Assembly: GCA_029556475.1 (NCBI GenBank)
Contig: JAKQEP010000007.1
Coordinates: forward strand, 1,274-65,273
Reading direction: 5' to 3'
Source of the DNA: Candidatus Atribacteria bacterium
GTDB lineage: Bacteria > Atribacterota > Phoenicimicrobiia > Phoenicimicrobiales > Stramentimicrobiaceae
Length of the DNA: 64,000 nucleotides
Part shown: in pieces, positions 313 through 64,000 of the stretch
Layout: the number at the start of each line of letters is the position of its first letter
How positions within the stretch are numbered: the stretch's first letter is position 1
The notes under the pieces: model-generated
The model's input: the letters and a program-made list of their open reading frames with translations, nothing else
Databases searched by the model: none
Told to the model about the DNA's origin: nothing
Program-made: the position numbers and the translations under genes

Positions 313-317
313 TGTGG

Positions 318-354: not shown

Positions 355-391
355 TTGTGTTCTAGTTTGAAGTTAAGTTAATGATAAATGA

Positions 392-2361: not shown

Positions 2362-2391
2362 ATTATAGGATGGTAAATTTGTGAATGTCAA
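2362..2391 (-). promoter_or_regulatory. Near-consensus sigma-70-type promoter upstream of the SLH-porin gene
   Basis: On the minus strand: TTGACA (2391-2386), an 18-nt spacer, then TATAAT (2367-2362). This implies a leader of about 265 nt before the ATG at 2089. Confidence 0.55.
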
Positions 2392-2565
2392 GCTTTTCTA
2401 TATAAAAAATATTTATATTTCCCTGTTTATAAAATAAATCAAATAATTATATATTGATTTATTCTTTATTTTATAGCTTTTTCTTTTTAAAATCAAGTAC
2501 AAGTGTAAAAAACCCCTACTAAAATTTTACACTAACTGTAAAAAATGATGGGGTAAGGAAGCAAT

Positions 2566-2960: not shown

Positions 2961-2988
2961 GCTGAGCATGCCTTTATACTCAAGATAA

Positions 2989-4119: not shown

Positions 4120-4129
4120 ATCTCATAAT

Positions 4130-4402
4130 GTTATCAGGGGGAAACCCCTGAAACTCCTTTAAAAGAAAGATTTTGGTTTTTAGTTTATAGTTTTTGGTAA
4201 TAATAATTTTGGGTTTGAAATACTTTGTCAAAACAGGTAACTTATTAGATTATCTAGGTAATTTAGTCAAGAGAAAAATTCCTTTAACTCTCTTTAATAA
4301 AAGATAAAGAAATACAACTTTTTTGCATATAATCAAGTATATATGTAAACAAGTTATCAGGGGGAAACCCCTGAAACTCCTTTAAAAGAAAGATTTTGGT
4401 TT
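4130..4402. repeat. 50-bp perfect direct repeat (4130-4179 and 4353-4402), each copy carrying the hairpin cagggg-gaaa-cccctg
   Basis: Character-by-character comparison gives identical copies: gttatcagggggaaacccctgaaactcctttaaaagaaagattttggttt. The period is 223 bp. Confidence 0.9.
4242..4270 (-). promoter_or_regulatory. Candidate promoter for the DUF3084 gene
   Basis: On the minus strand: TTGACT (4270-4265), a 17-nt spacer, then TAATAA (4247-4242). Confidence 0.35.
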
Positions 4403-48196: not shown

Positions 48197-48347
48197 TTTC
48201 CTAACCTTTTTGATTAATGATATAATCTAACAACTATTATGTTATTATTTTCAAAATTTTTGCTTTTTTAATTTCTGGGTTTTATTCTATATTTATAAAA
48301 CATACTGTCAAAACTTAAAATCTTAAGCCGATATTAAACTCTCACCG

Positions 48348-49424
48348 TTAATTATACCGGTAATAAGCTGAACAGGTCCCTTCACTGGAAACCATGCATG
48401 ACCCTACAGGATTTTCAGGAGTGCATACACTTCTAAAAAGAGGACATTGCCTGGGAGTAATAGCTCCCCTTAAGACATCTCCACATCTGCACAACTCATT
48501 CTCTCTTTCTCTTTCTATTTTTACCGAAAAATTACGGGCATTCAAATTAGAGAATTCCGGTCTCAGCTCTAAGCCGCTTTCTGCCACCATACCGATGCCC
48601 CTCCACTCACTAGGAACCGTTAAAAATACCTGGTTTATTAAAGCAAGGGCTAAAGGATTTCCTTCTTCCCTCACCGCTCTTCTGTATTTATTTTCTACCT
48701 GCGGAATCTTTTTAATCCTCTGTTCAATAATATGGTATATGGCATTTAAGATATCAACCGGTTCAAATCCGGCTATTACACAGGCAATATCATAACGTTC
48801 AGGAATGAATTGATATGGTTTGGTGCCAATAATAGTACTGACATGCCCGGGGCAGAGCATTCCGTCTATCTTCACCTCATTACTCTCCAATAGCGTTTTG
48901 ATAATCGGAGGCATTAATTTAGCCAGGCTGAACAGAAAAAAATTGTCAATCCGTCTCTTCTTTGCTTCCAAAACAGTACTGGCTAGCAATGGTATGGTTG
49001 TTTCAAAACCAATTCCTATCAGAATGACTCGTTTCTGAGGAAACTGCTCTGCTATCCCCAACGCCTGTAGGGGAGAATATATTACCCTGATATCTGCCCC
49101 TTCAGCTTTTTTCTTTTTTAAACTGGAAGTGCTGCCGGGGACATTAATCATATCTCCAAAAGTAGTTATTATGGTTTCCTCCATATCAGAAAGTGATATC
49201 ATATGGTCTATTTCATTAATGGGAGTAACACATACCGGACACCCGGGTCCTGAAATCAAACTAATATTCGCCGGTAAAAGATTTTTAATGCCGTAACGAA
49301 AAATGGACATGGTATGGGTACCACAGACTTCCATTATTCTTATTTCTTCTTTTGTTAATTTTTTAATCTTTTCTATTATCAGCTGGCAAAGATTTTTATC
49401 CCTGTATTCATCATAATATTTCAA
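48348..49424 (-). CDS. hypD: [NiFe]-hydrogenase maturation protein HypD
   Basis: Motifs MEVCGTHT, GPGCPVCV and the C-terminal cysteine-rich FeS region (CRCGDVL...CPLF...C). It overlaps hypC by 4 nt. Confidence 0.9.
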   Translation of the reverse strand: MKYYDEYRDKNLCQLIIEKIKKLTKEEIRIMEVCGTHTMSIFRYGIKNLLPANISLISGPGCPVCVTPINEIDHMISLSDMEETIITTFGDMINVPGSTSSLKKKKAEGADIRVIYSPLQALGIAEQFPQKRVILIGIGFETTIPLLASTVLEAKKRRIDNFFLFSLAKLMPPIIKTLLESNEVKIDGMLCPGHVSTIIGTKPYQFIPERYDIACVIAGFEPVDILNAIYHIIEQRIKKIPQVENKYRRAVREEGNPLALALINQVFLTVPSEWRGIGMVAESGLELRPEFSNLNARNFSVKIERERENELCRCGDVLRGAITPRQCPLFRSVCTPENPVGSCMVSSEGTCSAYYRYN

Positions 49425-49636
49425 GAGTGCATCTCCTCCCAGAGCTGGTTTATCTCGTTTGCCTCTTCAGGATCGATTTTGGTAATGGCATATCCGGCAT
49501 GTATAAGCACATAATCTCCTTCTTTAATTTCAGGAAAAAGGTCAATCCTTACCAACTTTTTGATCTTTCCTATAAGAACCTCTGCCTCTATAGAATTGAC
49601 TTTTTTTAAAACCTTACCAGGAATCGCAAGACACAT
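49421..49636 (-). CDS. hypC: [NiFe]-hydrogenase maturation chaperone HypC
   Basis: MCLAIPGKV N-terminus with the essential Cys2. 71 aa. Confidence 0.9.
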   Translation of the reverse strand: MCLAIPGKVLKKVNSIEAEVLIGKIKKLVRIDLFPEIKEGDYVLIHAGYAITKIDPEEANEINQLWEEMHS

Positions 49637-49684
49637 ACAGATACTCCTTCTATATTTTCCAATACATTATACTGTGGTTTATAA

Positions 49685-51982
49685 CTAAGAGTGATCTCTT
49701 ACAGACCTAATCCTTATATCAGCAACAATTGCCTGGCCCAGAGAAATACAGGCATCGTTGGGCGGAAGTTTTTTATGTATCATTACTTTAAAATTCTCTT
49801 CTTTTAATCTCTTTATGGTTTGGGCCAAGAGGAAGCTATTCTGAAAAACTCCTCCACTGAGAACGACATAATTAATATGGAATTTTTCTCTTATTTTAAC
49901 ACATTGGGAGAAAATAATATCGGTAATTGTATTATGAAACTGAGTGGCAATCCGGTTTAAAGAAGCTTTTCTTTCCAAATCAAAAATTATCTGATTGAAC
50001 ATTTCTCCACTATCCACAACCCAGCCGGTGTTTTCATAAATAATCTGATATTTATAATTCTCCTTATATTTAGGCTGACACAAGGCTTCCAGTTCCATAG
50101 CTGCCTGTCCCTCAAAATCCACCTCATCCCTCAACCCAATCAGAGAGGCAACCGCATCAAACAACCTTCCACAGCTGGAGGTGAGTGGTGAGTTTATATT
50201 CTTGTCTACCATCTGTTGTAACAGGTGGATATCTTTTTTCAATCTTCTTTCTTTTAATATTAGATAAATGGAATCAGCTTCCCACCCGGAAAAGGAATAG
50301 AGATAACTAAAAGCCATTCTCCATGGTTGAAGTATAGCCTGCTCTCCTCCGGGCAGAGCCGTATATTTTAAGTGACCAACCCTGGTGAATTCCTTGGTAG
50401 ACACTATTAGAAACTCCCCACCCCATATAGAACCATCCTGCCCGAATCCGCTACCATCTAAAGCAACTCCGATTACTTTTCCCTTAATATGGTTTTCAGC
50501 CATACAGCTGGCAATGTGCGCATGGTGATGTTGAACTTTTATCAAAGGGACTTTGAACTGTTCTGACAGCTCCTGAGCATAATGTGTGGAAAGATAATCG
50601 GGATGCAGGTCACAGGCAATAACTTCAGGTTCAAACTGAAATACCTTCATCAGGCGTCCGATAGCTTCCTGGTATGCCTGGAAGCTTTCACTTTTTTTTA
50701 AATCACCCAAGTGCTGGCTGGGGAAGGCATAACGGTCTTGGGTGATACATACTGTATTCTTTTCCTCAGGTCCTAAAGCCAGTACTGATTTTGATTTTTT
50801 GGGGAGCAGAATTGGGAAAGGAGCATATCCTCTTGATCTACGAATGAAGATAGGAAGGTTGCCAGCTATCTTTAAGACAGAATCATCACAGCGGTTATAA
50901 ATCTTCCGATCATGTATAAGCAGAAAATCGACCTGTTTGGATAGCTTCTGAAAAGCATCCTCATTTTCAATAATAATCGGTTCATCGCTGAAATTGGCAC
51001 TGGTCATAACCAGGACCAGATCGCTTTTTTCTAATAATAAAAAATGTAAGGGAGTATATGGCAGCATAAAACCAAGATAGGCATTCCCCGGTGCTATGTC
51101 TGGCGACAGATTGAACGCCTTTTTCTTTTTAAGAAGCACGATAGGTTTTTCCCTGCCCTCCAAAAACCTCTCAGCTAGAGCAGATACAAAACAAAATTTT
51201 TTTATTTTTACTACACTTTCAGCCATTAGCGCAAAGGGCTTCTGATCTCTTTTCTTTATATTTTTTATTCTGGAAACCGCCTCTCTATTCTGAGCATCAC
51301 AGGCAAGATGGAAACCCCCTAACCCTTTTATTACCCCTATTTGTCCTTTTTTTAACCTGTTTTGCGCTTCCAGAATAGGATTGGTAACATTGATTTTATG
51401 CTCCCCTTTATATAGATAAATTTGTGGACCACAAACCGGGCAAGCATTGGCTTCTGCATGGTAGCGACGATCAACTAAATTATGATACTCCTCAAGACAA
51501 TCTCTACACATAGAAAAATCCTGCATAGTAGTGTTATCTCTATCATAAGGCATATCTTTAATAATGGTAAAACGCGGTCCGCAATTGGTACAATTGATAA
51601 AAGGATAACGGTAGCGACGGTTAGATGGATCTTTTAACTCTCTCAAACAATCCTGACAGATGGAGATATCAGGGGGCATAAGAATAAGGGGATGTTTGTG
51701 GTCAGAGTTACTCTCTTTTATGATAAATTCGGAAAAACCTAAAGGGGGCAACTCTTTAATTTTTATTTTTTCAATAAGAGTTAAGGGTGGGGTATTCTTT
51801 TTCAGCTCAGCAAATAATTTTAAGCAGTCGAATTTATTCCCCTCAATTTCCATTTCAACTCCTCTATTGGAATTTCGAATCCAGCCATAAATATGGTAAT
51901 TCTTTACTAATTTATGAATAAAAGGTCGAAATCCCACCCCCTGCACTATTCCATATATGGTAACCTTGAATCTTGTCTTCAT
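49685..51982 (-). CDS. hypF: Carbamoyltransferase HypF
   Basis: Acylphosphatase domain (VQGVGFRPF), two zinc-finger CxxC pairs (CQDC...CTNCGPR; CRDC...CPVCGP), and YrdC and Kae1-like domains. 765 aa. Confidence 0.95.
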   Translation of the reverse strand: MKTRFKVTIYGIVQGVGFRPFIHKLVKNYHIYGWIRNSNRGVEMEIEGNKFDCLKLFAELKKNTPPLTLIEKIKIKELPPLGFSEFIIKESNSDHKHPLILMPPDISICQDCLRELKDPSNRRYRYPFINCTNCGPRFTIIKDMPYDRDNTTMQDFSMCRDCLEEYHNLVDRRYHAEANACPVCGPQIYLYKGEHKINVTNPILEAQNRLKKGQIGVIKGLGGFHLACDAQNREAVSRIKNIKKRDQKPFALMAESVVKIKKFCFVSALAERFLEGREKPIVLLKKKKAFNLSPDIAPGNAYLGFMLPYTPLHFLLLEKSDLVLVMTSANFSDEPIIIENEDAFQKLSKQVDFLLIHDRKIYNRCDDSVLKIAGNLPIFIRRSRGYAPFPILLPKKSKSVLALGPEEKNTVCITQDRYAFPSQHLGDLKKSESFQAYQEAIGRLMKVFQFEPEVIACDLHPDYLSTHYAQELSEQFKVPLIKVQHHHAHIASCMAENHIKGKVIGVALDGSGFGQDGSIWGGEFLIVSTKEFTRVGHLKYTALPGGEQAILQPWRMAFSYLYSFSGWEADSIYLILKERRLKKDIHLLQQMVDKNINSPLTSSCGRLFDAVASLIGLRDEVDFEGQAAMELEALCQPKYKENYKYQIIYENTGWVVDSGEMFNQIIFDLERKASLNRIATQFHNTITDIIFSQCVKIREKFHINYVVLSGGVFQNSFLLAQTIKRLKEENFKVMIHKKLPPNDACISLGQAIVADIRIRSVRDHS

Positions 51983-52527: not shown

Positions 52528-53496
52528 TTATTGGTTATTTTTATATTTTTCCAGTATATCAAGAAATCCTTTAATTATAATACACGATATGAAGGCAATT
52601 GTACCTAATTTTCCACCCGTTCCACAAAAATAAGGAGAGCTGTAGATAAAAAGAAAGGTACTCAATACAGCAGCAAGGGCAACATATAATTCATTTGGGA
52701 GCCTGGCCTGTGAAGACATCCCCACAAATGATGCACATATCATCATTACTGCCGCACTTCCCCCTATTTCAGAAAAAATCTGAGGCATAATCAGTCCTGC
52801 TAACAAGCCTACAACTCCTGAACCTGTAACTGCCCCGTATTTAAGCCTTATATTTAGCACATAGGAAATAACGGCGGCAATAACCGAGTATAATAACAAA
52901 TACTTTCCGGTATCCCAAGCTGGAATAGGGCTTATGTCTATAACCTTCTTATCAGCAAAAAAGGAGGCTATAATACACCCGGTTAGAGCAATGGTTCCTA
53001 ATTTTCCTCCAAATCCATTAAATACATTTTTGGATAGAACAAAGACCATACCGGCAACTATAGCAGCGAAAGCGAGATAAACATGAGTAGTAAAAAGAAT
53101 ACAGGATGCCATACCTACAAAGGAACCACAATAGGCCGGAACAGCAAATTTTGGGACCATTAGGGCAGACAAGACCCCAACCAGGGCTGAGGCAACCACA
53201 GGACCCATTTTTAGATAATTATTAAAAACAAAAGAAAGATATGCCCCAATAAGAAGGGTAATGAAGTTATAAAAATCTATGTTATCAAAGGAATATTTCT
53301 TTCCAACTTCTCTCTTCCTCTCACTATTAATCCCATAGATTAGACCAATCAACAGGATTGCCTGAAGAAAAAACAACCAGGAATAACCATGTGTTACGAT
53401 ATTACCCTCAAAAGTATAGCCAAATAATGCCAGCACTGTTAGGGGCAAAATAACAAAACCGATAACTGAAACCATAAGAATAACCTCTCTTTTCAA
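52528..53496 (-). CDS. Uncharacterized polytopic membrane protein with internal duplication
   Basis: Two homologous halves each contain LK(M/Y)G...SFVGM(A/S)S...G(F/T)GGKLGTIA(L/F)..CII. I could not recognise a family. Confidence 0.6.
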   Translation of the reverse strand: MKREVILMVSVIGFVILPLTVLALFGYTFEGNIVTHGYSWLFFLQAILLIGLIYGINSERKREVGKKYSFDNIDFYNFITLLIGAYLSFVFNNYLKMGPVVASALVGVLSALMVPKFAVPAYCGSFVGMASCILFTTHVYLAFAAIVAGMVFVLSKNVFNGFGGKLGTIALTGCIIASFFADKKVIDISPIPAWDTGKYLLLYSVIAAVISYVLNIRLKYGAVTGSGVVGLLAGLIMPQIFSEIGGSAAVMMICASFVGMSSQARLPNELYVALAAVLSTFLFIYSSPYFCGTGGKLGTIAFISCIIIKGFLDILEKYKNNQ

Positions 53497-53550: not shown

Positions 53551-54327
53551 TTAATCAACTATATTCTCAGGGAAAGAGTAAATATTCATTCTATTATCCC
53601 GTGCAAAACCGATTAATGTAATTAGCGCATCTTGAGCAAGTTTGACAGCATTATCAGTAACAGCCGAACGGGATATCACTGTGGAAACCTTCCCATTTAT
53701 GATTTTTTTCAATATTCCTTCAGTAATGCGACAAGAGGTAAGAAGAATCTTATCTACTACCTTTATGTTTTTTAACAAAGCCTCCCCCAGTATACGGTCT
53801 ACGGTGTTATAACGGCTTATATCTTCACAGAATAATAACAGGGAACCCTCCCTATCTGCCAGAGCGCAACTATGTACGCCACCAGTCTTATTAAACAAAA
53901 AAGCTTTCTCTTGCAGGTGGTTGAGGAGAGTAAAAATGGTATCTGATTTAATGATGATTCTTTTCTCTTTGTCATATAATTTTTTTGATTCTGCCACTGT
54001 TCCTGGCTTTAAAAAGCCTATGGGCAAATGAAGGTTAATCTCTTTCTCAACTGGCATCACTGTATTATTTAATGTTATATCGACTTTGTTTTCACCAGTT
54101 TTTATAGATACTATATCTTCTCTTCCAGTTATTATGCCATTAGTATATAAAAAACCTACCGCTAAGAATTGATAATTCCCCGGACTGCAGTTTAAGGATA
54201 TGAGCTTACGGTTATTTATCAGAATTGTTAATTCAACTTCCCGGGCAGTTAAGTCTGTTATACTGAGTCTCTTCTTATCTTCTATACGAATTATTTTTAT
54301 TTTCCTGCTTGAACTATCCCTTACCAA
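53551..54327 (-). CDS. fdhD: Formate dehydrogenase accessory protein FdhD-like
   Basis: The C-terminal half TGGVHSCALA...EDISRYNTVDRILGEAL...ISRSAVTDNAVKLAQDALITLIGFAR matches FdhD. I chose a TTG start at 54327, preceded by aagagg at 8-nt spacing. The longer track ORF would overlap mobA by 104 nt. Confidence 0.75.
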   Translation of the reverse strand: MVRDSSSRKIKIIRIEDKKRLSITDLTAREVELTILINNRKLISLNCSPGNYQFLAVGFLYTNGIITGREDIVSIKTGENKVDITLNNTVMPVEKEINLHLPIGFLKPGTVAESKKLYDKEKRIIIKSDTIFTLLNHLQEKAFLFNKTGGVHSCALADREGSLLLFCEDISRYNTVDRILGEALLKNIKVVDKILLTSCRITEGILKKIINGKVSTVISRSAVTDNAVKLAQDALITLIGFARDNRMNIYSFPENIVD

Positions 54328-54976
54328 TATTTTTACCTCTTTGGTAGAGCAGTATTTCTGCTTTTTTAAAATCGCTTTGAAAATTAATGTTAAAGAAAGA
54401 ATGTAATTCCGAATCAAATATTCTGATCTCTTCTTCTCTGATCCAGCGTATTTTACAACGAGGGAAAATTCCCCTTACTGCCAATATATTATTTTTTAGA
54501 TTCTGCTCCATAGTCTTCAGGCAATTTTTACTATAAATAGCGCATAAAGGTTCATACAATTCCTTACCGTAGGTCGGAATCACCATATCATAACCCTTAC
54601 TATTGCTAAGCATATATTCAACTAATTTTGACTCAACAAAGGGCATATCGTATCCTATTACCAGGTTATAAAATGTATTCGAATACTGTAAGCCGGAAAA
54701 AATTCCCCCCAGTGGACCTTTTTGTGGGTAGAGGTCTTCTACCACAGTAAATCCATGTCTGGAGTACTTTTCTTTTGGTCCTACAATAATAACATTATTC
54801 TTGTCTACTCCTTCGATAGATAGGATATTGACAAGAACGTATTCTATCAGACTGGTACCTTTAAATTGCATATGGCCTTTATCTTTATTTAATCCCATTC
54901 TACTGCTTCTGCCACCGGCTAAGACTAAGACTGAAAAGGGAGTGTGTTTTTTCTTTTTAAACATTTTTTTACTCAT
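54314..54976 (-). CDS. mobA: Molybdenum cofactor guanylyltransferase MobA
   Basis: LAGGRSSRMG nucleotide-binding motif. 220 aa. Confidence 0.8.
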   Translation of the reverse strand: MSKKMFKKKKHTPFSVLVLAGGRSSRMGLNKDKGHMQFKGTSLIEYVLVNILSIEGVDKNNVIIVGPKEKYSRHGFTVVEDLYPQKGPLGGIFSGLQYSNTFYNLVIGYDMPFVESKLVEYMLSNSKGYDMVIPTYGKELYEPLCAIYSKNCLKTMEQNLKNNILAVRGIFPRCKIRWIREEEIRIFDSELHSFFNINFQSDFKKAEILLYQRGKNIGKG

Positions 54977-55026: not shown

Positions 55027-55071
55027 TCAAAAAAGGGGCTATACTATACCTTCTGCGACAGTATAACCCCT
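55027..55071 (-). terminator. Strong Rho-independent terminator closing the FDH operon
   Basis: 12-bp stem with 11 of 12 positions paired: aggggctatact (55034-55045) / agtataacccct (55060-55071). On the minus strand it is followed by TTTTTT. It lies 28 nt after the focA stop. Confidence 0.85.
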
Positions 55072-55098: not shown

Positions 55099-55995
55099 CT
55101 ATTTATTCTCCCTTAAATAGACATACCAATACAGGGTAGCTACAAAAAAGGCTCCACCAATTATATTGCCTATGGTTACCGGTAACAAATTGTTAAACAA
55201 AAGTCCGCTTATATTTAGCTTGTCAAGCTTGCCTGTTAATCCGGCTGCTTCTACAACTGAAATATTGTTCTTGAGTAGAATTCCCATAGGTATAAAATAC
55301 ATATTGGCAATGCTATGCTCAAAACCACTGGCTACAAAAGCCATAATGGGAAAATATATGCCCAGGATTTTTCCCGGAACATCTTTAGCTGCTACTGCCA
55401 TCCATACTGCCAGACACACCAGCCAGTTACAGAGAATTCCTCTGGCTATTGCTGCACCCCAGGTTATATTGACTTTACCATTTGCTATCGCTAAAGCTCT
55501 TGCCCCTACAGCAAAATTTCCGGTGGTCCAAAGTTTTGCAAGATACATTAACCATACTACCAGCAAAGAACCAACAAAATTGGCTATATATACCCAAAAC
55601 CAGCTGTTTAATAATTTTTCTACGGTTATATTTTTGTTTAAAGTACCTACCACTATTAAGTTATTTCCGGTAAACAATTCTGCTCCAGCAATAACTACCA
55701 GCATCAAGCCAACAGAAAAAACACTGCCAAATAGAACTTTGGCGATACCATCACCGACATATTTTGCTGTATCATAAGTGGCCATAGTGGCAAGCTGTGC
55801 TCCAAAGCTGATATAAGCACCGGCTAGAATACCTAAAATAATCATTTTAGCCAGTGATAGACTTGCCTTGGTCTTGCCAATAGTGCAAAAAGCATTGGCA
55901 ATTGCCGCAGGTGCATTGCATGGTGTTGCTACATCCTGTACCAGCTGAATATTTTCTTTCTCTGGACTCAATTTGATTTCCTCCTCTTTTGACAA
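55099..55995 (-). CDS. focA: Formate/nitrite transporter family channel (FocA-like)
   Basis: FNT family features: AGAELFTGN, the GFEHSIANM central His motif, and six TM segments. Confidence 0.9.
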   Translation of the reverse strand: MSKEEEIKLSPEKENIQLVQDVATPCNAPAAIANAFCTIGKTKASLSLAKMIILGILAGAYISFGAQLATMATYDTAKYVGDGIAKVLFGSVFSVGLMLVVIAGAELFTGNNLIVVGTLNKNITVEKLLNSWFWVYIANFVGSLLVVWLMYLAKLWTTGNFAVGARALAIANGKVNITWGAAIARGILCNWLVCLAVWMAVAAKDVPGKILGIYFPIMAFVASGFEHSIANMYFIPMGILLKNNISVVEAAGLTGKLDKLNISGLLFNNLLPVTIGNIIGGAFFVATLYWYVYLRENK

Positions 55996-56010: not shown

Positions 56011-58782
56011 TTAGGATATTTTTTTAACTTTAACTGCACATACTTTATATTCTGGTATCTTGGAAATGGGATCAAGAGCTGCAATAGTCAACAAATTTGC
56101 CGCAGCTTCATGGAAATGGAAGCTCATAAATACCACTCCCTCATCTGATTTTTCTGTAACTTTAGCCTTTGCCCTAACTTTTCCTCTGCGAGAGGCAACT
56201 TCAATTATTTCTCCATCAGTAATGTTTAGTTCCTGAGCATCCTGGGGACTGATTTCCACTAATGCTTCTTTGTAAATCTCGTTCAACCCTTTGGACCTTC
56301 GAGTAACTGTTCCGGTATGGAAATGGTACAATACTCTTCCTGTAGTTAGGATTAACGGGTATTCTTCATCGGGCAGTTCAACCGCCTCTTTAAATTCAAT
56401 TGGGATAAACTTTCCTTTTCCTCTGCTGAATTTATCCTTATGTAAAAACCTGGTCCCCGGATGTTCCATATTGGGACAGGGCCATTGCAGGCCCTCTTTT
56501 CCCAATCTGGGATAGAGAATCCCTCCGTAAATAGGAGTTAAACTGGCAATTTCTTCCATAATTTCAGCAGGGCTATTATAACTCATTTGATAGCCCATTT
56601 TTTGAGCCAGCTCACAAATTATTTGCCATTCAGGCTTGGCTTCTCCTAAAGGTTCTATAGCTTTATGGAATCTCTGCACTCTTCTTTCGGTATTGGTGAT
56701 TGTTCCATCCTTCTCAGCAAAAGTAACTCCGGGTAATACCACATCAGCTACCTCAGCTGTTTCGGTCAAAAATATGTCAGATACCACTAAAAAATCAACC
56801 CTCTTCAGAGCTTCACGGGCATGTGCCAAATCCGGGTCTGACATAGCCGGATTCTCAGCCATTACAAAAATTCCTCTGATTTTACCATCATAGGCAGCAT
56901 TTAATATTTCTACCACCGTTAATCCTATTTTATCTGGTAGTTCCACTCCCCAGGCTTTAGAAAATTTCTCTCTGGCCTGCGGGTCAGTAACAGCCTGATA
57001 ACCGGAATAGACGTTGGGCAGTGCTCCCATATCGCAGGCACCCTGAACATTGCTTTGCCCGCGCAATGGATTTACACCGGCATTTTCTTTTCCAACATTA
57101 CCGGTTAACATGGCCAGATTAGCCGTAGACATTACATTGTCAGTACCGGTGCTGTGCTGAGTAATTCCCATTGAATAGATTAAAGAAGCACTCTCAGCAC
57201 TGGCATAAATCCGGGCAGCTTTTCTAATGTCTTCAGCCGGCACACCGGTAATTTTTGCTACTATTTCCGGGGTATATTTTAAGACTACTTCTCTCAACTT
57301 TTCATAATCTTCTGTTCTTTCTTTAATAAATTCTTTGTCTTCCAGTCCTTCCATGATAATGACATTCATTAAACCATTAAAGAGAGCCACATCAGTTCCA
57401 GGCCTATGTCTTAACCAGAGTGTGGCATATTTAACTAATTCTATCTCTCTGGGGTCTGCCACAATCAATTTTGCTCCATTTTTGGTAACTGCTTTTTTAA
57501 TTTCCAAAGCAATTATAGGATGGTTCTCAGTAGTATTGGAACCGGTCAGATAGATTACCGGTGCGTTGGCAATCTCTTTAATAGAGTTGGTCATAGCTCC
57601 ACTTCCAAAAGATTGTGCCAGACCGGCAACCGTAGCAGAGTGACAGAGGCGCGCACAGTGGTCCACATTATTGGTTCCAAAAACAGCCCGGGCAAATTTC
57701 ATAAGGAGAAAATTCTCTTCATTAGTACATTTAGCTGAAGAAAGTGCGGCCAGGCTATCACTGCCGCTCTCTTTTTTAATCTCCTGGAACCTATTACTGA
57801 TTAAGGTAAGCGCTTCATCCCAGGAAGCGGGTTCCAGCTTACCATTTTTTCTAATTAACGGAGTTTTTAAGCGATCCTCTTTATGAATGTAGTCATTTCC
57901 AAAACGACCTTTCACACAAAGATTAATTCCATTTACTATACTATCAGAATTGGAAGTTACTTTAACTACCTTTCCGTCTTTAATATTTAAATCAAATCCG
58001 CATCCACATCCACAATAATTACAGGTAGTATGGACTTTTTGAAATTCCCACACCCTTCCTTTTCCTTCAGCTGCTTTGTCAGTTAAGGCTCCAACAGGGC
58101 ATACCGCAACACACTGGCCACAGGAAACACAATTGGAATAATCAGGATTATCTTTTGAACCAATGGTCATTTTGGTCTCATGCCCTAATTTGTGGCCCAA
58201 ACCGGCTATTACCTCTGTTTTTGTTCCACGAAAGCCGAATCCAATGGCTCTTGATTGCTGAATTTCATTACATATTTCAACACATCTCCGACAAAGAATG
58301 CATTTATTTAAATCTCTTAAAATAAAAGGGTTGCTGTTATCAATGGGAAGATTTCTCTCCTTCCTGCCAAAGCCGGACTCTTTAATCCCGAATTCATAGG
58401 CCAAATCCTGTAAATCACATTCTCCATTTTTTTCACAGGTCATACAATCCAGCGGGTGTGTGGTTAATAACAATTCCAATACAGCCCGGCGAGCATTAAC
58501 CACTCTATCGCTATGAGTATATATGACCATCCCTTCATTTACCGGGTAAACACATGAGGCTACCAGACAGGGATGACCTTTAACCTCTACCACACACATA
58601 CGACAGGATCCTGGATAATGATTTATCTCTGACATAGCACATAATGTGGGTATTTTTATACCGGCTTTATTGGCAGCATCCAGAATTGTAGAGCCTGGTT
58701 CTATCATAACTTTTTGGTCATTTATTGTAACTTGAACCATAGGTATTTCTGTTTTTTTATCTTTTATTTCTGTAGCTTTCAT
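56011..58782 (-). CDS. Formate dehydrogenase catalytic subunit (FdhA/FdsA/FdhF2-type) with a fused NuoG-like N-terminal FeS domain; cysteine, not selenocysteine, at the active site
   Basis: N-terminal 2Fe-2S (CAMSEINHYPGSCRMC). A His-ligated cluster (HPLDCMTCEKNGEC). Two ferredoxin-type 4Fe-4S motifs (CILCRRCVEIC, CVSCGQCVAVCP). A MopB cluster (CNYCGCGC). Active-site segment HCARLCHSATV. No in-frame TGA. Confidence 0.9.
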   Translation of the reverse strand: MKATEIKDKKTEIPMVQVTINDQKVMIEPGSTILDAANKAGIKIPTLCAMSEINHYPGSCRMCVVEVKGHPCLVASCVYPVNEGMVIYTHSDRVVNARRAVLELLLTTHPLDCMTCEKNGECDLQDLAYEFGIKESGFGRKERNLPIDNSNPFILRDLNKCILCRRCVEICNEIQQSRAIGFGFRGTKTEVIAGLGHKLGHETKMTIGSKDNPDYSNCVSCGQCVAVCPVGALTDKAAEGKGRVWEFQKVHTTCNYCGCGCGFDLNIKDGKVVKVTSNSDSIVNGINLCVKGRFGNDYIHKEDRLKTPLIRKNGKLEPASWDEALTLISNRFQEIKKESGSDSLAALSSAKCTNEENFLLMKFARAVFGTNNVDHCARLCHSATVAGLAQSFGSGAMTNSIKEIANAPVIYLTGSNTTENHPIIALEIKKAVTKNGAKLIVADPREIELVKYATLWLRHRPGTDVALFNGLMNVIIMEGLEDKEFIKERTEDYEKLREVVLKYTPEIVAKITGVPAEDIRKAARIYASAESASLIYSMGITQHSTGTDNVMSTANLAMLTGNVGKENAGVNPLRGQSNVQGACDMGALPNVYSGYQAVTDPQAREKFSKAWGVELPDKIGLTVVEILNAAYDGKIRGIFVMAENPAMSDPDLAHAREALKRVDFLVVSDIFLTETAEVADVVLPGVTFAEKDGTITNTERRVQRFHKAIEPLGEAKPEWQIICELAQKMGYQMSYNSPAEIMEEIASLTPIYGGILYPRLGKEGLQWPCPNMEHPGTRFLHKDKFSRGKGKFIPIEFKEAVELPDEEYPLILTTGRVLYHFHTGTVTRRSKGLNEIYKEALVEISPQDAQELNITDGEIIEVASRRGKVRAKAKVTEKSDEGVVFMSFHFHEAAANLLTIAALDPISKIPEYKVCAVKVKKIS

Positions 58783-58817
58783 TTTATCTTATTCCATTCC
58801 TTCCTTTCTCTTCAAAA

Positions 58818-61800
58818 TTAGTCTTCTCTGTATTCACAACGCAGGCATCTGCTGCTCTCCCGGCAAGCTATCTCTTTACTCCAGGTTTTCTCCACTTCAT
58901 CATGGATACCTCTTTCGACAACAGGGATGAGATTATCATGTGAACGGGCATAATCCACCGGGTCAGCTTCGGGGTCAAAGTCCACGTTGATAGGATATTT
59001 CACCCTCCAGGGATAAACTCTCTTCTTGCCTGTTAAATAAAAATCAATTGCTTCAGCAGCATTTTGAGCATCACCTATGGCTTCAACTACTGTAGCAGGT
59101 CCTAATGCGACATCGCCACCGGCAAATATATCTCTTATATTAGTTATACCTTTTTCAGTGGAAATAGTCTGATCACGATTAAGATTTACTTCTCCATTAT
59201 TGAACAATTCTGAAAGGGCAGGCTTCTGCCCGATGGATAAGATCAGGGAATCAACTCTCTTATTAAAATTGGAACCCTTATTTTCAACAGGTCTGCGTCG
59301 CCCTGAAGCATCATAATCCCCTAATTTCATATTTACCAGTTCAACTTCCAGATAACCGTTTTCAGACTTTACTGATTTTATATTCTGCAATAGAGAAATG
59401 GCAATACCTTCTCTTTCTGCTTCATTTATTTCAGCTTCATCAGCAGGCATTTCCTCTCTGGTCCTTCGATAAACAATAGTAACGTTTGCTCCTAACCTTT
59501 TAGCAGTTCTGGCAGCATCAATAGCTGAATTGCCCCCACCAATTACCATTACTTCTTTACCAACATCGAGTTTCTCTTTTCTGTTAAATCTGGATAAGAA
59601 TTCTAAACCGCTGAAAATTCTGGGGTTTTCCAAATTGTCCATCTCAGGCATAATAGAATCCCAGGCACCGGCTGAAATATAAAATGCCTGATACCCTTCT
59701 TTTCTAAGCTGATCTAAAGTGATATCTTCTCCCACAATTGTATTGGTTTTTATCTCAACTCCATAATCTATCAGAGCCTGAATTTCTTTATCTACAATAT
59801 TTTTTGGTAAACGGTAAGAAGGTATGGCATAGGTCAACATTCCGCCAGCTTTTGGCTGGGCTTCAAATACGGTTGTTTCATATCCTAACATAGTTAGAAA
59901 ATAAGCATTAGAGAGTCCGGAAGGACCACCACCGATGATGGCAACTTTTTTACCATTTTTCCTATTTTTTTCAGGGAAACAGGCCAGATAATTATCAACC
60001 TGATCTGCCATAAATCTCTTTACAGCACGAATATTGACAGCATCATCAATATCTCTTCGACGACATCTGGTTTCACAAAATGCAGGACATACCCTTCCGC
60101 ATACCGCCGGGAAGGGATTTGTTCTTAAATGCGCCTCCATAGCTTTCTCATATTGTCCTTCTTTAGTGTAAGCCAGATAGGCAGATACATTAACCGAGGC
60201 AGGACAGGAGTTAGTACAGGGCGCGTATACCAATTCTGCGCAAACTCCAGCTCTGCATTTCTTATCTCTGATATGCTCAATATATTCATGTTTGAAATAT
60301 CTTAAGGTGGACAAGATCGGGTTGGGAGCAGTCTGCCCCAGACCACAAAGAGCTGTATCCTGAATCCTATAAGATAATTCCTCTAAGGTATCCAAATCTT
60401 CCATCTTACCTTTGCCTTCACAAATCCTGGTCAATATCTCCAGCATCACCCTGGTCCCTTCACGGCAAGGAGTGCATTTTCCACAGGATTCATCCTGAAT
60501 GAACTCCATAAAATAGCGGGCTATGTCAACCATACAGGTGTCCTCATCCATAACTATCAACCCGCCTGAGCCCATAATAGCTCCAAGTTCTTTTAATGAT
60601 TCATAATCAACTACTGCATTGAGATGCTGTGCCGGAATACAGCCACCTGATGGTCCTCCAATTTGAACAGCTTTGAATTTTTTATTTCCCGGAATTCCCC
60701 CGCCAATATTGTAAACAATTTCACCTAAGGTAATGCCGATGGGAACTTCGATTAAACCGGTATTGTTAATATTTCCGGCAAGGGCAAATACCTTGGTCCC
60801 TTTGCTCTTTTCAGTTCCCACAGAAGCAAAGTTTTCAGCTCCATAAAGAATTATATAAGGTATATTGGCTAAGGTTTCTACATTGTTTAAAACAGTAGGA
60901 GATTGAAATAGCCCTTTGTTGGCAGGGAAAGGTGGTCTTGGTCTGGGCTCTCCCCTCTTACCTTCAATGGAGTGCATTAAGGCAGTCTCTTCACCACAGA
61001 CAAATGCTCCAGCTCCTAATCTAATTTCAACATCAAAATCAAAGCCAGTTCCCAGGATATTTTTACCGAGTAAATTATGTTTCTTCATCTCATTAATAGC
61101 TATTCTTAATCTTTCAATAGCTAAGGGGTATTCCGCTCGAACGTAAATATATCCCTGGTTAGCACCGATAGCATAACCGCCAATCATCATAGCCTCCAAT
61201 ACGCTGTAGGAATCCCCCTCCAGCATACTGCGGTCCATAAATGCACCCGGGTCTCCTTCATCTGCATTGCATAAAATATATTTTGGCTGACCGGATGCTT
61301 TGGCAGCAAATTCCCACTTCAATCCTGTTGGAAAGCCAGCTCCACCTCTGCCCCTTAATCCTGATTTTTTAATTTCGTCAATAACCTGCTGAGGGGTCAT
61401 CTCTGTCAATACCTTGGCTAAAGCCATAAAACCATCTGCCCCGATATAATCATCAATAGTGTTAACATCGATGATTCCACAGTTTCTGCGGGCAATTTTT
61501 CTCTGCAATTTAAAGAAATCAATGTCTTCCATCATAGCCACTAATTCTTCTGTTTTAGGCTTTTTATAAAAAAGCCGCTGTACCACTCTTCCCTTTAAAA
61601 TATGTTCCTGTACAATTTCCCGGGCATCTTCTGGTTTTAATTGCTGGTAAAACACACCATCGGGATAGACCACCATAATAGGTCCCAGTTCACAGATACC
61701 CATGCAACCGGTATGTATTATTTCTACTTCTTTTTCCAGATTAGCCTCTTTTAATGCCTCTTCCAATGCTTCTCTCACTCTCGCTGCTCCATTAGACATA

Positions 61801-61847
61801 CAGGAAGTACCATGACACAGAAGAAGCTGTGTTCTTATATTATTCAT
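58818..61847 (-). CDS. Fusion protein: thioredoxin-like 2Fe-2S domain + NuoF-like FMN/NADH/4Fe-4S module + GltD/NfnB-like FAD/NAD(P)H oxidoreductase module
   Basis: CHGTSC...CMGICELGP (2Fe-2S). GLRGRGGAGFPTGLKW (FMN). ESCGKCTPCREG (N3-type cluster). Then NPFPAVCGRVCPAFCETRC, the FAD motif VAIIGGGPSGLS and the NAD(P)H motif VIGGGNSAIDAA, typical of glutamate synthase small-subunit-like proteins. One uninterrupted 1009-aa ORF. Confidence 0.85.
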   Translation of the reverse strand: MNNIRTQLLLCHGTSCMSNGAARVREALEEALKEANLEKEVEIIHTGCMGICELGPIMVVYPDGVFYQQLKPEDAREIVQEHILKGRVVQRLFYKKPKTEELVAMMEDIDFFKLQRKIARRNCGIIDVNTIDDYIGADGFMALAKVLTEMTPQQVIDEIKKSGLRGRGGAGFPTGLKWEFAAKASGQPKYILCNADEGDPGAFMDRSMLEGDSYSVLEAMMIGGYAIGANQGYIYVRAEYPLAIERLRIAINEMKKHNLLGKNILGTGFDFDVEIRLGAGAFVCGEETALMHSIEGKRGEPRPRPPFPANKGLFQSPTVLNNVETLANIPYIILYGAENFASVGTEKSKGTKVFALAGNINNTGLIEVPIGITLGEIVYNIGGGIPGNKKFKAVQIGGPSGGCIPAQHLNAVVDYESLKELGAIMGSGGLIVMDEDTCMVDIARYFMEFIQDESCGKCTPCREGTRVMLEILTRICEGKGKMEDLDTLEELSYRIQDTALCGLGQTAPNPILSTLRYFKHEYIEHIRDKKCRAGVCAELVYAPCTNSCPASVNVSAYLAYTKEGQYEKAMEAHLRTNPFPAVCGRVCPAFCETRCRRRDIDDAVNIRAVKRFMADQVDNYLACFPEKNRKNGKKVAIIGGGPSGLSNAYFLTMLGYETTVFEAQPKAGGMLTYAIPSYRLPKNIVDKEIQALIDYGVEIKTNTIVGEDITLDQLRKEGYQAFYISAGAWDSIMPEMDNLENPRIFSGLEFLSRFNRKEKLDVGKEVMVIGGGNSAIDAARTAKRLGANVTIVYRRTREEMPADEAEINEAEREGIAISLLQNIKSVKSENGYLEVELVNMKLGDYDASGRRRPVENKGSNFNKRVDSLILSIGQKPALSELFNNGEVNLNRDQTISTEKGITNIRDIFAGGDVALGPATVVEAIGDAQNAAEAIDFYLTGKKRVYPWRVKYPINVDFDPEADPVDYARSHDNLIPVVERGIHDEVEKTWSKEIACRESSRCLRCEYRED

Positions 61848-61878
61848 AATTAATCTACTCCTTATTTTCCTTATTTAA

Positions 61879-62376
61879 CTATTTATATTTTTCTAATATT
61901 GCATCTAATTTGCTGGCAGTTAACCGACCATGAACATCCTGGTCAATCATAATGACAGGTGCCATTCCACAGGAGCCAAAACAACGCTGTTCTCCTAAGG
62001 TAAACCTCAGATCTTCTGTTGTTTCACCTATCTTTATTCCTAACTTATCTTCCAAAGCTTCTAAAATCTTTTTAGCACCCCTCACATAACAGGCTGTTCC
62101 CATACAGACAGTAATAGTATGCCTTCCTACAGGTTGTGTTTTAAAATAGGAATAGAATGTTACCACTCCAAATACTTCACTTACCGAGATATTCATCTCA
62201 TCCGCAATGAATTTTTGGACTTCTTTAGGTAAGTAACCAAACAAAGATTGCGCTTTATACAAAACTGGGATTAAATAGCCTCTTTTTTCTCTATTTTCCC
62301 TAATAAAGTTACCCAATTCCTGATATTTTTCTTCAGCGGTCAATTCTTCATTTTTAATAACAGTTGTTTCATTCAT
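61879..62376 (-). CDS. NuoE/HydC-like thioredoxin-fold 2Fe-2S subunit
   Basis: CMGTACYVRG...CFGSCGMAP cluster motif. 165 aa. The start overlaps the upstream stop (TAATG). Confidence 0.85.
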   Translation of the reverse strand: MNETTVIKNEELTAEEKYQELGNFIRENREKRGYLIPVLYKAQSLFGYLPKEVQKFIADEMNISVSEVFGVVTFYSYFKTQPVGRHTITVCMGTACYVRGAKKILEALEDKLGIKIGETTEDLRFTLGEQRCFGSCGMAPVIMIDQDVHGRLTASKLDAILEKYK

Positions 62377-62744
62377 TATTTTTTCCCCTTTGAAAATAGA
62401 TATTGTTCTACTACTCTATTGTTTAAAACATGTTCGTTAAAGATTAGCCTTGCCGCTTCTATATCAACATTTCGATAGGTTACCGGCCTTTGCTCTTCAA
62501 CATAGATATGAATCATAGGCTCCTGAGCGCAAAACCCAAAACAACCTGATGCCGTAACTATAATATCAGATCTTTTGCTGTTTTCTATCAAGGTTACAAA
62601 TTCATTCATAACCTCTCTGGCACCAGCCGCTATTCCACAACTGCCCATTCCAACCACAATTTTGATCCGGTGTTGCCCTGACCTCAACCTCAGATCTTGT
62701 TTTACTTTCTCCCGCATCAATTTTAGTTCTTCAATATTTTTCAT
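62376..62744 (-). CDS. Small thioredoxin-like (2Fe-2S) ferredoxin-domain protein
   Basis: GMGSCGIAAGA...ASGCFGFCAQEP. 122 aa. Comparable small proteins occur in HydABC-type hydrogenase clusters. Confidence 0.7.
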   Translation of the reverse strand: MKNIEELKLMREKVKQDLRLRSGQHRIKIVVGMGSCGIAAGAREVMNEFVTLIENSKRSDIIVTASGCFGFCAQEPMIHIYVEEQRPVTYRNVDIEAARLIFNEHVLNNRVVEQYLFSKGKK

Positions 62745-62794: not shown

Positions 62795-63319
62795 TTATAT
62801 CCTTAACTCTTTTTGGGATACCTCTTGAATGTGTTTTCTTATATTGCTGTAATCCTTTTGTCCTTTCTCAATTTCAATTCTTAATTCCTGGAAATCTAAA
62901 ACCAGTTTTTCAGTATCATTTTCTATTCTAAACAGCTTTAGGGCGAGTTCTGGCCAGGCAAAGAAGATATCTGAAAAAGTTCTGGATAGATCGCCGAGAG
63001 GCTTAGCATCAATATGGGTCAGATACATTTTAAACTGAAGAGCAGTACCACCACTCTCATCTATTCTCATTATCTTTAAATACCCACAGGTGTCCTCCAC
63101 CGCTCTTTTTAATAAAGGAAGGCCTAATCCTACTCTTCTGGTCTTTCTGGAAGTGACAAAAGGGTCTAATACTTCCTGACCGTTAATTCCTTTTCCATTG
63201 TCAGATATAGAGCAAAAAAAATAACTCTTAGTATGAGCTATTTTTACAATAACTTCATTTGCTCCGGCATTCACTGAATTTTCTAAAATATCAAAAAGAT
63301 GGTCTGCTAAATCTTTCAA
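62795..63319 (-). CDS. Stand-alone histidine-kinase-like ATPase (HATPase_c) domain protein
   Basis: N-box ILENSVNAGA, G1 box DNGKGI and G2-like GLGLPLL. There is no HisKA, sensor or TM region in its 174 aa. Confidence 0.7.
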   Translation of the reverse strand: MKDLADHLFDILENSVNAGANEVIVKIAHTKSYFFCSISDNGKGINGQEVLDPFVTSRKTRRVGLGLPLLKRAVEDTCGYLKIMRIDESGGTALQFKMYLTHIDAKPLGDLSRTFSDIFFAWPELALKLFRIENDTEKLVLDFQELRIEIEKGQKDYSNIRKHIQEVSQKELRI

Positions 63320-64000
63320 TTTTTATCTTTCTTAAAAAATATTTTAATGAATCAAAATCAACTATATAATGCTCATCTTCTACTTCGAAAAAAAATGTTC
63401 CAATATCTTCTAAAAAATGACTATCTGAACCGCTAATAACCGGAAATCCTTCAATCAAATCCCCGATTTTACACTTCTTTTTTATCCACTCATATCTTGA
63501 TAATTCAACAGCATCAAACTCACTTTTGGGATCCAAAAAACCAATCTGGCTCTTTATACTGCAATAATCTCTGTAAATATGAGCAGGGATAGCCAATCCA
63601 CCAAGATGATGAATGAGTTTTACCAACTCATCTAAACTTATTTGTAGAGCATTTTGTCTTAACAGGCAATCTATTTCAACTATCTCCCCCTCTTGGTCAT
63701 AGATGAGCTGGTCACCAAAAAAAGAAGCCCTGTTCTCCATTTGGGGTAAATACTCGTTTATCTTTTCCCCCATCTCTCTTATACTTACTTCATCCGGGAA
63801 ATAACCCAATAAATGAACTTCTTCTTTAGTAGTAAGCTCGACTCCGAGTATGATATTAACCGGGCTTGCTTTTTTAATTTCACTGATTAAGATAGAATGT
63901 GCAATCGCGTTGTGATCAGTAATGGCAATTAGATTTAATCCACTCTGTTCTGCCTTTTTCAATATATTTTGTGGAGACATAATATTTTCCCCACAGGCAG
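63291..64000 (-). CDS. PHP (polymerase/histidinol-phosphatase) domain protein, 5-prime partial at the window edge
   Basis: IAITDHN and GSDSH metal-binding motifs. The frame stays open upstream of the first Met (..ACGENIMSPQNI..) to position 64000, so the true N-terminus lies outside the window. It overlaps the HATPase gene by 29 nt. Confidence 0.7.
   Translation of the reverse strand, partial: ACGENIMSPQNILKKAEQSGLNLIAITDHNAIAHSILISEIKKASPVNIILGVELTTKEEVHLLGYFPDEVSIREMGEKINEYLPQMENRASFFGDQLIYDQEGEIVEIDCLLRQNALQISLDELVKLIHHLGGLAIPAHIYRDYCSIKSQIGFLDPKSEFDAVELSRYEWIKKKCKIGDLIEGFPVISGSDSHFLEDIGTFFFEVEDEHYIVDFDSLKYFLRKIKIERFSRPSF

Follow-up and report, generated by a model that had tools for sequence, protein, structure and literature searches.

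A formate dehydrogenase (FDH) operon of Candidatus Atribacteria, lying in a window of 64,000 nucleotides (nt) of contig JAKQEP010000007.1 to which all coordinates below refer, encodes a 1009-residue protein in which a NuoF subunit of the Bfu/HydABC type is fused to a GltD-like module. Sequence comparisons indicate that this fusion design is real, widespread and uncharacterised, being linked to hydrogenase in most lineages and to FDH in the JS1 Atribacterota. Earlier work had touched on it no more than in passing. What the analysis adds is that the predicted NADP(H) module occupies the place where ferredoxin should bind. Bfu/HydABC enzymes hold a central place in anaerobic energy metabolism, and the mechanism of bifurcation based on flavin mononucleotide (FMN) is still unresolved. 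An enzyme in which the ferredoxin exit has been swapped for a module with flavin adenine dinucleotide (FAD) and NADP(H), with the gated core kept, would provide an experimental handle on the low-potential branch and test whether 'bifurcation' can run between two nucleotide pools.

The genes and the parts of the fusion on which the argument depends are as follows.

62376-62744, minus strand: small thioredoxin-like protein, 122 residues (open reading frame (ORF) list and NCBIfam)
61879-62376, minus strand: NuoE/HydC-like BfuC subunit, 165 residues (Pfam)
58818-61847, minus strand: BfuB(NuoF)-GltD fusion, 1009 residues (Pfam, NCBIfam and alignments to solved structures)
61578-61847, minus strand: N-terminal thioredoxin-like [2Fe-2S] domain of the fusion, residues 1-90, with Cys11, 16, 48 and 52 (Pfam match 6-81)
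60270-61463, minus strand: NuoF core of the fusion, residues 129-526 (TIGR01959, HydB alignments and motifs)
60240-60275, minus strand: B2 hinge part of the fusion, residues 525-536, with His525, Cys531 and Cys536, joined by Cys438 and Cys476 of the core (alignment)
58821-60230, minus strand: StnC/NfnA-type GltD module of the fusion, residues 540-1009 (Fer4_20, Pyr_redox_2 and structure ranking)
56011-58782, minus strand: FdhA, 923 residues, Cys-type, BfuA type 1 (TIGR01591, Pfam and structures)
57643-57645, minus strand: codon of the FdhA active-site Cys380 (alignment to 1aa6_A; TGA at the matching position of a deltaproteobacterial relative, L022)

An earlier, sequence-only reading of this DNA had described an FDH coupled to a NuoE/NuoF module of the HydABC/Bfu type, with a complete GltD-like module fused to the NuoF, and Pfam, NCBIfam and structure alignments all agree with it. 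The ORFs it had listed (small, NuoE-like, 1009 and 923 residues) were recovered at the same positions, all on the minus strand. Its count of five genes for 56011-62744 is corrected to four; the fifth, focA, lies outside that span.

The NuoF-GltD fusion and the missing ferredoxin-docking domain

Canonical BfuB continues after the hinge with a ferredoxin-like domain of ~55 residues, whose two CX2CX2CX3CP motifs carry clusters B3 and B4. In the cryo-electron microscopy structure of NfnABC from T. sibiricus, ferredoxin sits between this B3/B4 domain and BfuC's C-terminal domain, and destruction of B4 lowered the bifurcating activity from 17.2 to 0.76 U/mg (PMC12018979). A motif search of the whole 1009-residue ORF found no CX2CX2CX3C motif, and the HydB alignments stop at about residue 540, at 'IRDKKCRAGVC', which together indicate that the GltD module takes the place of the ferredoxin-exit domain B3/B4 and is not an addition to a complete BfuB. 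Seven residues lie between Cys536, the last B2 ligand, and Cys544, the first cysteine of the GltD clusters. As the ferredoxin-docking domain is missing, a 'ferredoxin-bifurcating' function cannot simply be assumed; of the ferredoxin bifurcating or transhydrogenating complex proposed earlier, the bifurcating-type core stands, but the docking domain B3/B4 is replaced by GltD.

Pfam resolved the fusion into 2Fe-2S_thioredx (residues 6-81), Complex1_51K (159-330), NADH_4Fe-4S (441-525), Fer4_20 (532-618) and Pyr_redox_2 (633-926), with an SLBB match at 354-402 whose 26.7 bits fall slightly under the Pfam cut-off of 27 bits, and NCBIfam added 501 bits to TIGR01959. Complex1_51K, SLBB, NADH_4Fe-4S, Fer4_20 and Pyr_redox_2 had been anticipated, and the C-terminal part is GltD-like with its cofactor residues. 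Residues 5-540 align without large gaps to HydB of Acetomicrobium mobile (NiFe; 7t2r_B) and Acetobacterium woodii (7q4v_B), with ~70% identity and 790-800 bits, whereas the same region reaches only 385-395 bits with the non-bifurcating FdsB and Nqo1. The core carries the FMN loop GGAGFPTG at 168, GAGAFVCGEE at 278 and the B1 [4Fe-4S] ligands Cys455, 458, 461 and 501. The cysteines of B1 and of the N-terminal 2Fe-2S domain, together with the hinge ligands His525, Cys438, Cys531 and Cys536, are kept in all of the 15 + 16 aligned fusions. By family matches (TIGR, Pfam) and ligand comparison, the fusion has a Bfu-type NuoF core, the N-terminal 2Fe-2S domain and the B2 hinge.

The B2 site of T. sibiricus NfnB is formed by C437, H524, C529 and C534, to which NiFe-HydB adds a fifth ligand, Cys476; the five-ligand site binds a [2Fe-2S] cluster instead of Zn (PMC12018979). 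By alignment, Cys438, Cys476, His525, Cys531 and Cys536 of the fusion match this set, so that its B2 site is complete. At position 476 the window protein and eight of the 16 other fusions have Cys, the remaining eight Thr. Cys531 and Cys536 were also considered as ligands of the GltD clusters and rejected, since with His525 and Cys438 they match the published B2 set (PMC12018979); nor are they needed there, because an RCLxC motif at the C-terminus provides the missing CxxC.

Among solved structures the GltD module is closest to NfnA of T. sibiricus (379 bits), followed by NfnA of C. saccharolyticus and a StnC-type chain of Sporomusa (349 and 315 bits); the matches to NfnL (262-292 bits), GltD (~204 bits) and dihydropyrimidine dehydrogenase (116 bits) are weaker. 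The motif NPFPAVCGRVCPAFCETRC quoted in the sequence-only reading is present, and two dinucleotide folds are conserved, for FAD with GGGPSG at 639 and for NADP(H) with GGGNSA at 770 followed by YRR at 793-795. The two arginines of YRR we take to be the binders of the 2'-phosphate, as in GltD/NfnB. With these domains and motifs in place, the polypeptide is predicted to hold the two pyridine-nucleotide sites suggested earlier, one at the NuoF FMN and one at the GltD FAD. RCLxC stands at the extreme C-terminus of every fusion examined, in alignment with the RCLxCG behind the GltD domain of NfnA; presumably it is the same motif that begins canonical GltD.

Candidate ligands for two [4Fe-4S] clusters in the module are Cys544, 548, 583, 587, 591 and 595, Lys610, Cys1001 and Cys1004. 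From this set we infer that Cys1001, 1004, 544, 548, 587, 591 and 595 with Lys610 (and Cys583) would be enough for both clusters. In 16 other fusions, 47-91% identical and drawn from ~9 phyla, the candidate ligands are kept except at Cys476 of the B2 site (Thr in eight) and Cys583 (Leu in one); Lys610 is invariant, and YRR is kept in all but one. By alignment, Lys610 would be the counterpart of the Lys with which NfnA/StnC coordinate their FAD-proximal cluster; direct numbering against the published ligand did not match, and the offset of eight residues was ascribed to chain numbering. In NfnL a Glu occupies this position (PMC12018979). The FAD of StnC is non-bifurcating and serves as a plain NADPH port, converting between two-electron and one-electron transfer (PMC10482914).

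The GltD part was also considered as a true glutamate synthase, sulfide dehydrogenase or NfnSL subunit. This assignment was rejected for want of a GltB or NfnS partner gene and in view of the Lys at the presumed ligand position: no gltB was found among the annotated genes at 38878-63980, and no gene for NfnS (PyrK-like, 2Fe-2S/FAD) in the operon by ORF list and Pfam. An AlphaFold2 model of the fusion, built on a 15-sequence alignment, had a mean pLDDT of 67 and a pTM of 0.51, with most of the NuoF half below 50, values too poor for inter-domain or cluster distances.

Partner subunits, distribution and known relatives

The NuoE-like protein (2Fe-2S_thioredx, 179 bits in Pfam) carries the C1 [2Fe-2S] ligands Cys91, 96, 132 and 136, and among solved structures it is most similar to bifurcating-enzyme C subunits, 7t2r_C (156 bits) and 7q4v_C (151 bits). 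FdhA scores 915 bits with TIGR01591 (cut-off 666). Its N-terminus is NuoG-like, with Fer2_4, NADH-G_4Fe-4S_3 and two Fer4 domains ahead of the Molybdopterin and Molydop_binding domains (Pfam), and its cysteines map to a 2Fe-2S cluster, a His-ligated 4Fe-4S cluster, ferredoxin-type 4Fe-4S clusters at 161-171 and 218-228 and a pterin-proximal 4Fe-4S cluster. Structure matches were obtained with FdsA (~730 bits), FdhF and HDCR. Cys380-His381 align with Sec140-His141 of E. coli FdhH (1aa6_A), and the Arg of NPLRGQSNVQG with Arg333, which bears out the earlier description of a Cys-type enzyme with a NuoG-like FeS N-terminus. These features indicate an FDH with molybdenum- or tungsten-bis(pyranopterin guanine dinucleotide), the type-1 Fdh-Bfu BfuA in the sense of PMC9304861, whose pterin site appears intact.

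The small protein had been described as a 2Fe-2S protein. The thioredoxin-like ORF is there, with a weak NCBIfam match to a 2Fe-2S ferredoxin, but its three cysteines (36, 68 and 72) fall short of a full four-Cys site. An alignment of 15 homologues showed CxnCx3C to be conserved, the first Cys usually missing and all Cys gone in one hydrogenase-linked locus (L014). By position and size it resembles HydD, the fourth subunit of tetrameric hydrogenases (PMC6288185, PMC6163223).

The exact 1009-residue protein is present in public collections, within a cluster at >=90% identity of 16 members from independent assemblies; the named members are labelled Atribacterota/Caldatribacteriota and annotated 'NuoF' or FAD-dependent oxidoreductase. 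More than 100 further full-length homologues with 58-93% identity were among the matches listed, and overall the full-length homologues are 47-93% identical and come from at least nine phyla. The possibility of a frameshift or assembly artefact, raised as a caveat in the sequence-only reading, was rejected on these many independent full-length homologues; an apparent split of the fusion in an Atribacterota locus (L018) is a scaffold gap of NN. There is also a systematic annotation problem, as named close homologues carry no label beyond 'NuoF' or FAD-dependent oxidoreductase, and dependence of the complex on ferredoxin is taken for granted.

Gene maps were drawn in two ways, by looking up the encoding contigs and by scanning a single genome of each species and then calling ORFs and mapping them with BLASTP. 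The scan matched N-terminal NuoF patterns only and gave at least 80 loci, ~17 of them with a full-length fusion, so that partner frequencies describe a small, non-random sample. A trio of small protein, NuoE and NuoF-GltD is conserved in these loci. Full-length fusions occur in metagenome-assembled genomes (MAGs) labelled Atribacterota, Verrucomicrobiota, Lentisphaerota, Nitrospiraceae, Actinomycetota, Armatimonadota, Desulfobacterota (including Smithella), Halanaerobiales, other Bacillota and Brocadiia. Among the 17 loci the usual downstream neighbour is the [FeFe] hydrogenase HydA (L010, L013, L014, L016, L019, L025 and L033). Profiling of fusions next to fdhA, advised by the sequence-only reading, did recover direct adjacency, but as a minority of two cases, the JS1-type Atribacterota clade of the window and the deltaproteobacterial MAG L022.

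In the JS1-type relatives (L006-L009) the fusion is 81-93% identical and the FocA-MobA-FdhD tail is the same. In L022 (13772-16471) the gene after the trio codes for an FdhA and has a TGA in frame at precisely the position of Cys380, which points to a selenocysteine enzyme, the Sec version of the FDH-linked arrangement. More distant Atribacterota (L004 and L018, 71-76% identity) have the trio, NuoE2, NuoF2, HydA, an energy-coupling factor transporter gene, FdhA and FocA. The set NuoE2/NuoF2/[FeFe]-HydA directly follows the fusion in L004 (11048-14982), L018 (13797-17743), L003 (11725-17651) and L011 (11602-15609), and is missing in the JS1 clade of the window. NuoF2 (547 residues) is without the N-terminal 2Fe-2S cysteines, all B2 ligands and any C-terminal domain; it looks like a non-bifurcating HydB type that forms a self-contained set with NuoE2 and HydA. 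FdhA would therefore be left as the partner of the fusion module in L004 and L018. As the FdhA of L004 and L018 is 81% identical to that of the window and the JS1 operon looks like the L004/L018 unit minus the intervening hydrogenase genes, FdhA is a plausible BfuA of the fusion module in Atribacterota.

In several phyla a homologue of the PHP-domain gene precedes the NuoE/NuoF-GltD module, and a HATPase_c gene adjoins it in L001, L004, L006, L011, L014, L018, L022, L025, L029 and L033. The PHP and HATPase_c genes (62795-63980 in the window; L001, L004, L006, L011, L018, L022, L025, L029 and L033) travel with the trio across phyla as a conserved, putatively accessory or regulatory set. DRTGG and CBS-HATPase genes lie further upstream in relatives, beyond these two.

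When the junction (residues 440-700) was searched against 1.84 billion cluster representatives, 1538 matches at E <= 1e-30 were obtained, including fusions of ~1000 residues. A separate family of ~570-660 residues (P0141, P0146, P0157, P0171 and P0173) combines the C-terminal 4Fe-4S helical domain of NuoF (PF10589) with Fer4_20 and Pyr_redox_2 and has no FMN domain; it is possibly NF009410/PRK12771. As the junction recurs in this separate family, it would be old and reused. Two further proteins, P0172 (1130 residues) and P0244 (1038 residues), have a weak Complex1_51K and SLBB region, possibly RnfC- or NuoF-like, fused to GltD and then to a full C-terminal Fer4 dicluster domain.

Full-text literature searches found no biochemical study of any NuoF-GltD fusion, in line with the sequence-only reading, which knew of no characterised example. 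The architecture had nevertheless been met before: a GltD-bearing HydB of a trimeric [FeFe] hydrogenase was noted in the 2018 genome paper on Vallitalea guaymasensis L81 (PMC6163223), and the JS1 operon has been named an electron-bifurcating FDH ('EBFdh') with NADH and reduced ferredoxin taken as donors and the fusion unmentioned (PMC6776118). The HydDB rule 'GltD ... but not NuoF' (PMC5037454) may reflect such fusion proteins met during classification. In the Bfu survey the family is delimited by a BfuBC cofactor set that does not vary, and the only GltD-like domains described are those on BfuA (Nfn-Bfu); its text contains none of the words GltD, fused and fusion (PMC9304861).

The nearest described class is Fdh-Bfu type 1 (clade 49, Schut et al. 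2022, PMC9304861), for which HylABC-FdhF2 of Gottschalkia acidurici is the biochemical precedent (cited in PMC9304861). It shares the NuoE-like BfuC, the bifurcating-type BfuB (N-terminal 2Fe-2S, FMN, B1 and B2) and a NuoG-like FdhA as BfuA; where it has the B3/B4 ferredoxin-like domain, the window fusion has GltD with predicted FAD, NADP(H) and two differently folded [4Fe-4S] clusters. StnABC/NfnABC (PMC7483475, PMC10482914, PMC12018979, PMC11829005) have in common the BfuBC core, a GltD-type FAD/NADPH module with the presumed Lys ligand and the C-terminal RCLxC, and a NuoG/FdhA-like subunit, and StnC/NfnA are the closest relatives of the window GltD part with solved structures. In Stn, GltD is fused to BfuA and feeds a mid-potential path into B1, the pterin domain is catalytically dead without formate activity, and B3/B4 is retained and ferredoxin used; in the window, GltD is fused to BfuB and would end the low-potential branch, the FdhA active site appears intact, and B3/B4 is absent.

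The Vallitalea guaymasensis hydrogenase (PMC6163223), known from annotation alone, resembles the majority arrangement with HydA after the fusion, its partner being an [FeFe] hydrogenase and not FdhA. FdsABG of Rhodobacter capsulatus and Cupriavidus necator (6tg9, 6vw7) shares the FdhA/NuoG-like alpha, NuoF-like beta and NuoE-like gamma subunits, but FdsB is without the N-terminal 2Fe-2S domain, B2 and the C-terminal module, all three of which are found in the window BfuB. NfnSL/NfnAB likewise combines FAD, an NADPH site and two [4Fe-4S] clusters on a GltD-like subunit (5jca_L, 292 bits); it differs in its NfnS partner, its Glu ligand and an N-terminal first CxxC, the window having no NfnS gene, a Lys at the presumed site and a C-terminal CxxC. 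GltD proper pairs with GltB and has an N-terminal RCLxC...CP, in contrast to the window, where no gltB is found, RCLRC is C-terminal and the match is only 204 bits. The NADP-dependent FDH of Thermococcus onnurineus reportedly has a GltD-like NADP(H) subunit and no NuoE/NuoF (FMN/NAD) core.

Possible routes for the low-potential electron

Tentatively, and with rather less than even confidence, we favour a low-potential branch that would end at FAD/NADP(H) and not at ferredoxin, in a cytoplasmic FDH coupling CO2/formate to NAD(H) and NADP(H). The A clusters and B1 would carry electrons between the pterin and the FMN 'flavobicluster', while NAD(H) would react at FMN and NADP(H) at FAD. The low-potential electron of canonical Bfu enzymes moves from FMN to the mobile C1, through (B2) B3/B4 and on to ferredoxin (PMC8880783, PMC12018979); here it would run from C1 to B2, the GltD clusters, FAD and NADP(H), with no canonical ferredoxin site. 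Because the Atribacterota host is fermentative or syntrophic and FocA belongs to the operon, the favoured direction would be NADH + NADPH + 2 CO2 -> 2 formate, followed by export. NADPH has a physiological potential of about -370 mV; being more reducing than NADH, it could thus stand in thermodynamically for ferredoxin when formate concentrations are low. The physiological potential of NADH is about -280 mV (PMC9304861). NADH oxidation would be drawn along by the more reducing NADPH pool, and reduced ferredoxin would be spared for the membrane-bound hydrogenase.

A wider proposition is a ferredoxin-independent Bfu subtype, in which the gated branch would be hard-wired to a second nucleotide site and NADH and NADPH confurcated onto CO2 (H+ in the hydrogenase versions), exploiting the NADP/NAD potential gap; we consider it possible, on balance doubtful. 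If true, it would be a new energy-coupling mode for syntrophs and fermenters of at least nine phyla. Subsurface JS1 Atribacterota are abundant in methane-rich sediments, and their predicted electron bookkeeping would change, since formate production may drain NADH and NADPH and spare reduced ferredoxin for the energy-conserving membrane hydrogenase.

Several points weigh against a branch that ends at NADP(H). The standard potentials of NAD and NADP are equal, which leaves little driving force unless cellular NADPH/NADP+ and NADH/NAD+ differ strongly. The geometry from B2 to the GltD clusters is judged from linker length alone. Residue 476 is Thr in about half of the fusions, where B2 may hold Zn and be redox-inert, as in T. 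sibiricus; C1 would then have to reach the GltD clusters directly. Ferredoxin could still find a docking place, either on the cluster domain of GltD, by analogy with the NfnL clusters, or between GltD and BfuC. The Lentisphaerota loci L001 and L002 have the trio without an adjacent BfuA, and the module may have a function of its own. Finally, the JS1 literature takes the enzyme as ferredoxin-dependent (PMC6776118).

That last interpretation corresponds to a ferredoxin- and NAD+-dependent bifurcating or confurcating FDH ('EBFdh'), in which ferredoxin would dock on the [4Fe-4S] domain of GltD, at the BfuC-GltD interface or on the small subunit, and the GltD FAD would serve as NADP(H) port, making a four-substrate FDH with Stn/Nfn-like transhydrogenase. 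The intact N-terminal 2Fe-2S domain and B2 of the bifurcating-type BfuB core suit such an enzyme, but the experimentally defined docking domain B3/B4 is missing from it. Homologous clusters of NfnL do pass electrons to ferredoxin in NfnSL (PMC8097209, PMC12018979), and JS1 genomes have been interpreted accordingly (PMC6776118); the GltD of the window is, however, of the StnC/NfnA type (Lys610), in which the clusters are an internal wire and not a ferredoxin exit (PMC10482914, PMC12018979). A conserved thioredoxin-like small subunit travels with the module and might offer a docking site, yet it has three Cys only and none in L014. We regard this explanation as unlikely.

An uncoupled, dual-specificity NAD(P)H FDH is slightly less likely again. 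GltD would then be a second entry or exit port with no energetic coupling between the sites, as would fit the plain two-electron/one-electron converter that is the FAD of StnC-type GltD (PMC10482914), but an ungated FMN-FeS-FAD wire would be a futile NADPH:NAD+ transhydrogenase. A possible parallel, judged by the title of the paper, is the NADP-dependent FDH of Thermococcus onnurineus (PMC8965080). The fusion also retains all features of the gated core (mobile-type BfuC, B2 hinge and N-terminal domain), unlike the stripped NuoF2 of relatives. Improbable in our judgement is an autonomous trio, acting as NADH:NADP+ transhydrogenase or NAD(P)H:acceptor oxidoreductase, with FdhA merely co-transcribed and served by another redox partner. 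The trio does occur without a BfuA neighbour in L001/L002 and ahead of a full NuoE2/NuoF2/HydA set in L003, L004, L011 and L018, but no second NuoEF pair exists in the JS1 operon, and FdhA has a NuoG-like N-terminus of the kind that binds a NuoF/NuoE pair in all solved relatives. The 35-nt gap between fusion and FdhA, the independent recurrence of their adjacency in L022 and the position of HydA directly after the fusion in seven other lineages likewise speak against an autonomous trio.

Operon surroundings

The remaining genes and signals near the FDH operon are listed here.

63291-63980, minus strand: PHP-domain protein, 229 residues, upstream accessory gene (Pfam PHP/PHP_C)
62795-63319, minus strand: histidine-kinase-like ATPase domain protein, 174 residues, upstream accessory gene (Pfam HATPase_c)
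55099-55995, minus strand: FocA-type formate channel, 298 residues (Pfam and NCBIfam)
55029-55070, minus strand: intrinsic terminator, hairpin and U6, 3' of focA, ending the operon (sequence reading and folding)
54314-54976, minus strand: MobA, molybdenum cofactor guanylyltransferase (Pfam and NCBIfam)
53551-54417, minus strand: FdhD, FDH sulfurtransferase (Pfam and NCBIfam)

The genes for the small protein, NuoE, the fusion and FdhA are spaced by -1, 31 and 35 nt, with 15 nt more to focA. FocA matches Form_Nir_trans with 274 bits (Pfam), and its best NCBIfam equivalog, formate_focA, reaches 237 bits, under the cut-off of 290 bits. The strong terminator expected downstream of it was confirmed as an 11-bp GC-rich stem with a 14-nt loop and U6, with a folding free energy (dG) of -24.2 kcal/mol (z = -4.8 against shuffles); a simple terminator scanner missed it because of the 14-nt loop, and direct reading and folding found it. 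The listed FdhD ORF, with a TTG start at 54417, overlaps MobA by 104 nt (54314-54417). As FdhD homologues are 250-260 residues long, the true start probably lies further downstream.

A 322-residue multi-pass membrane ORF without Pfam or NCBIfam match lies between FdhD and a YqgF/RuvX-like gene (52528-53496, minus strand), and is missing from the equivalent position in the close relative L006. The [NiFe]-hydrogenase maturation genes HypE, HypD and HypF are found downstream of the FDH operon (47186-51982, minus strand), and in close relatives (L006-L008, positions 1-4300) that operon is immediately preceded by a gene cluster for a group-4 membrane-bound NiFe hydrogenase and by HycI. All ORFs of the window with at least 150 residues are on the minus strand save one, opposite focA and apparently spurious, and GC skew is negative in nearly all 2-kb bins (cumulative -4.5); this strand bias and skew fit a long co-oriented stretch of one replichore.

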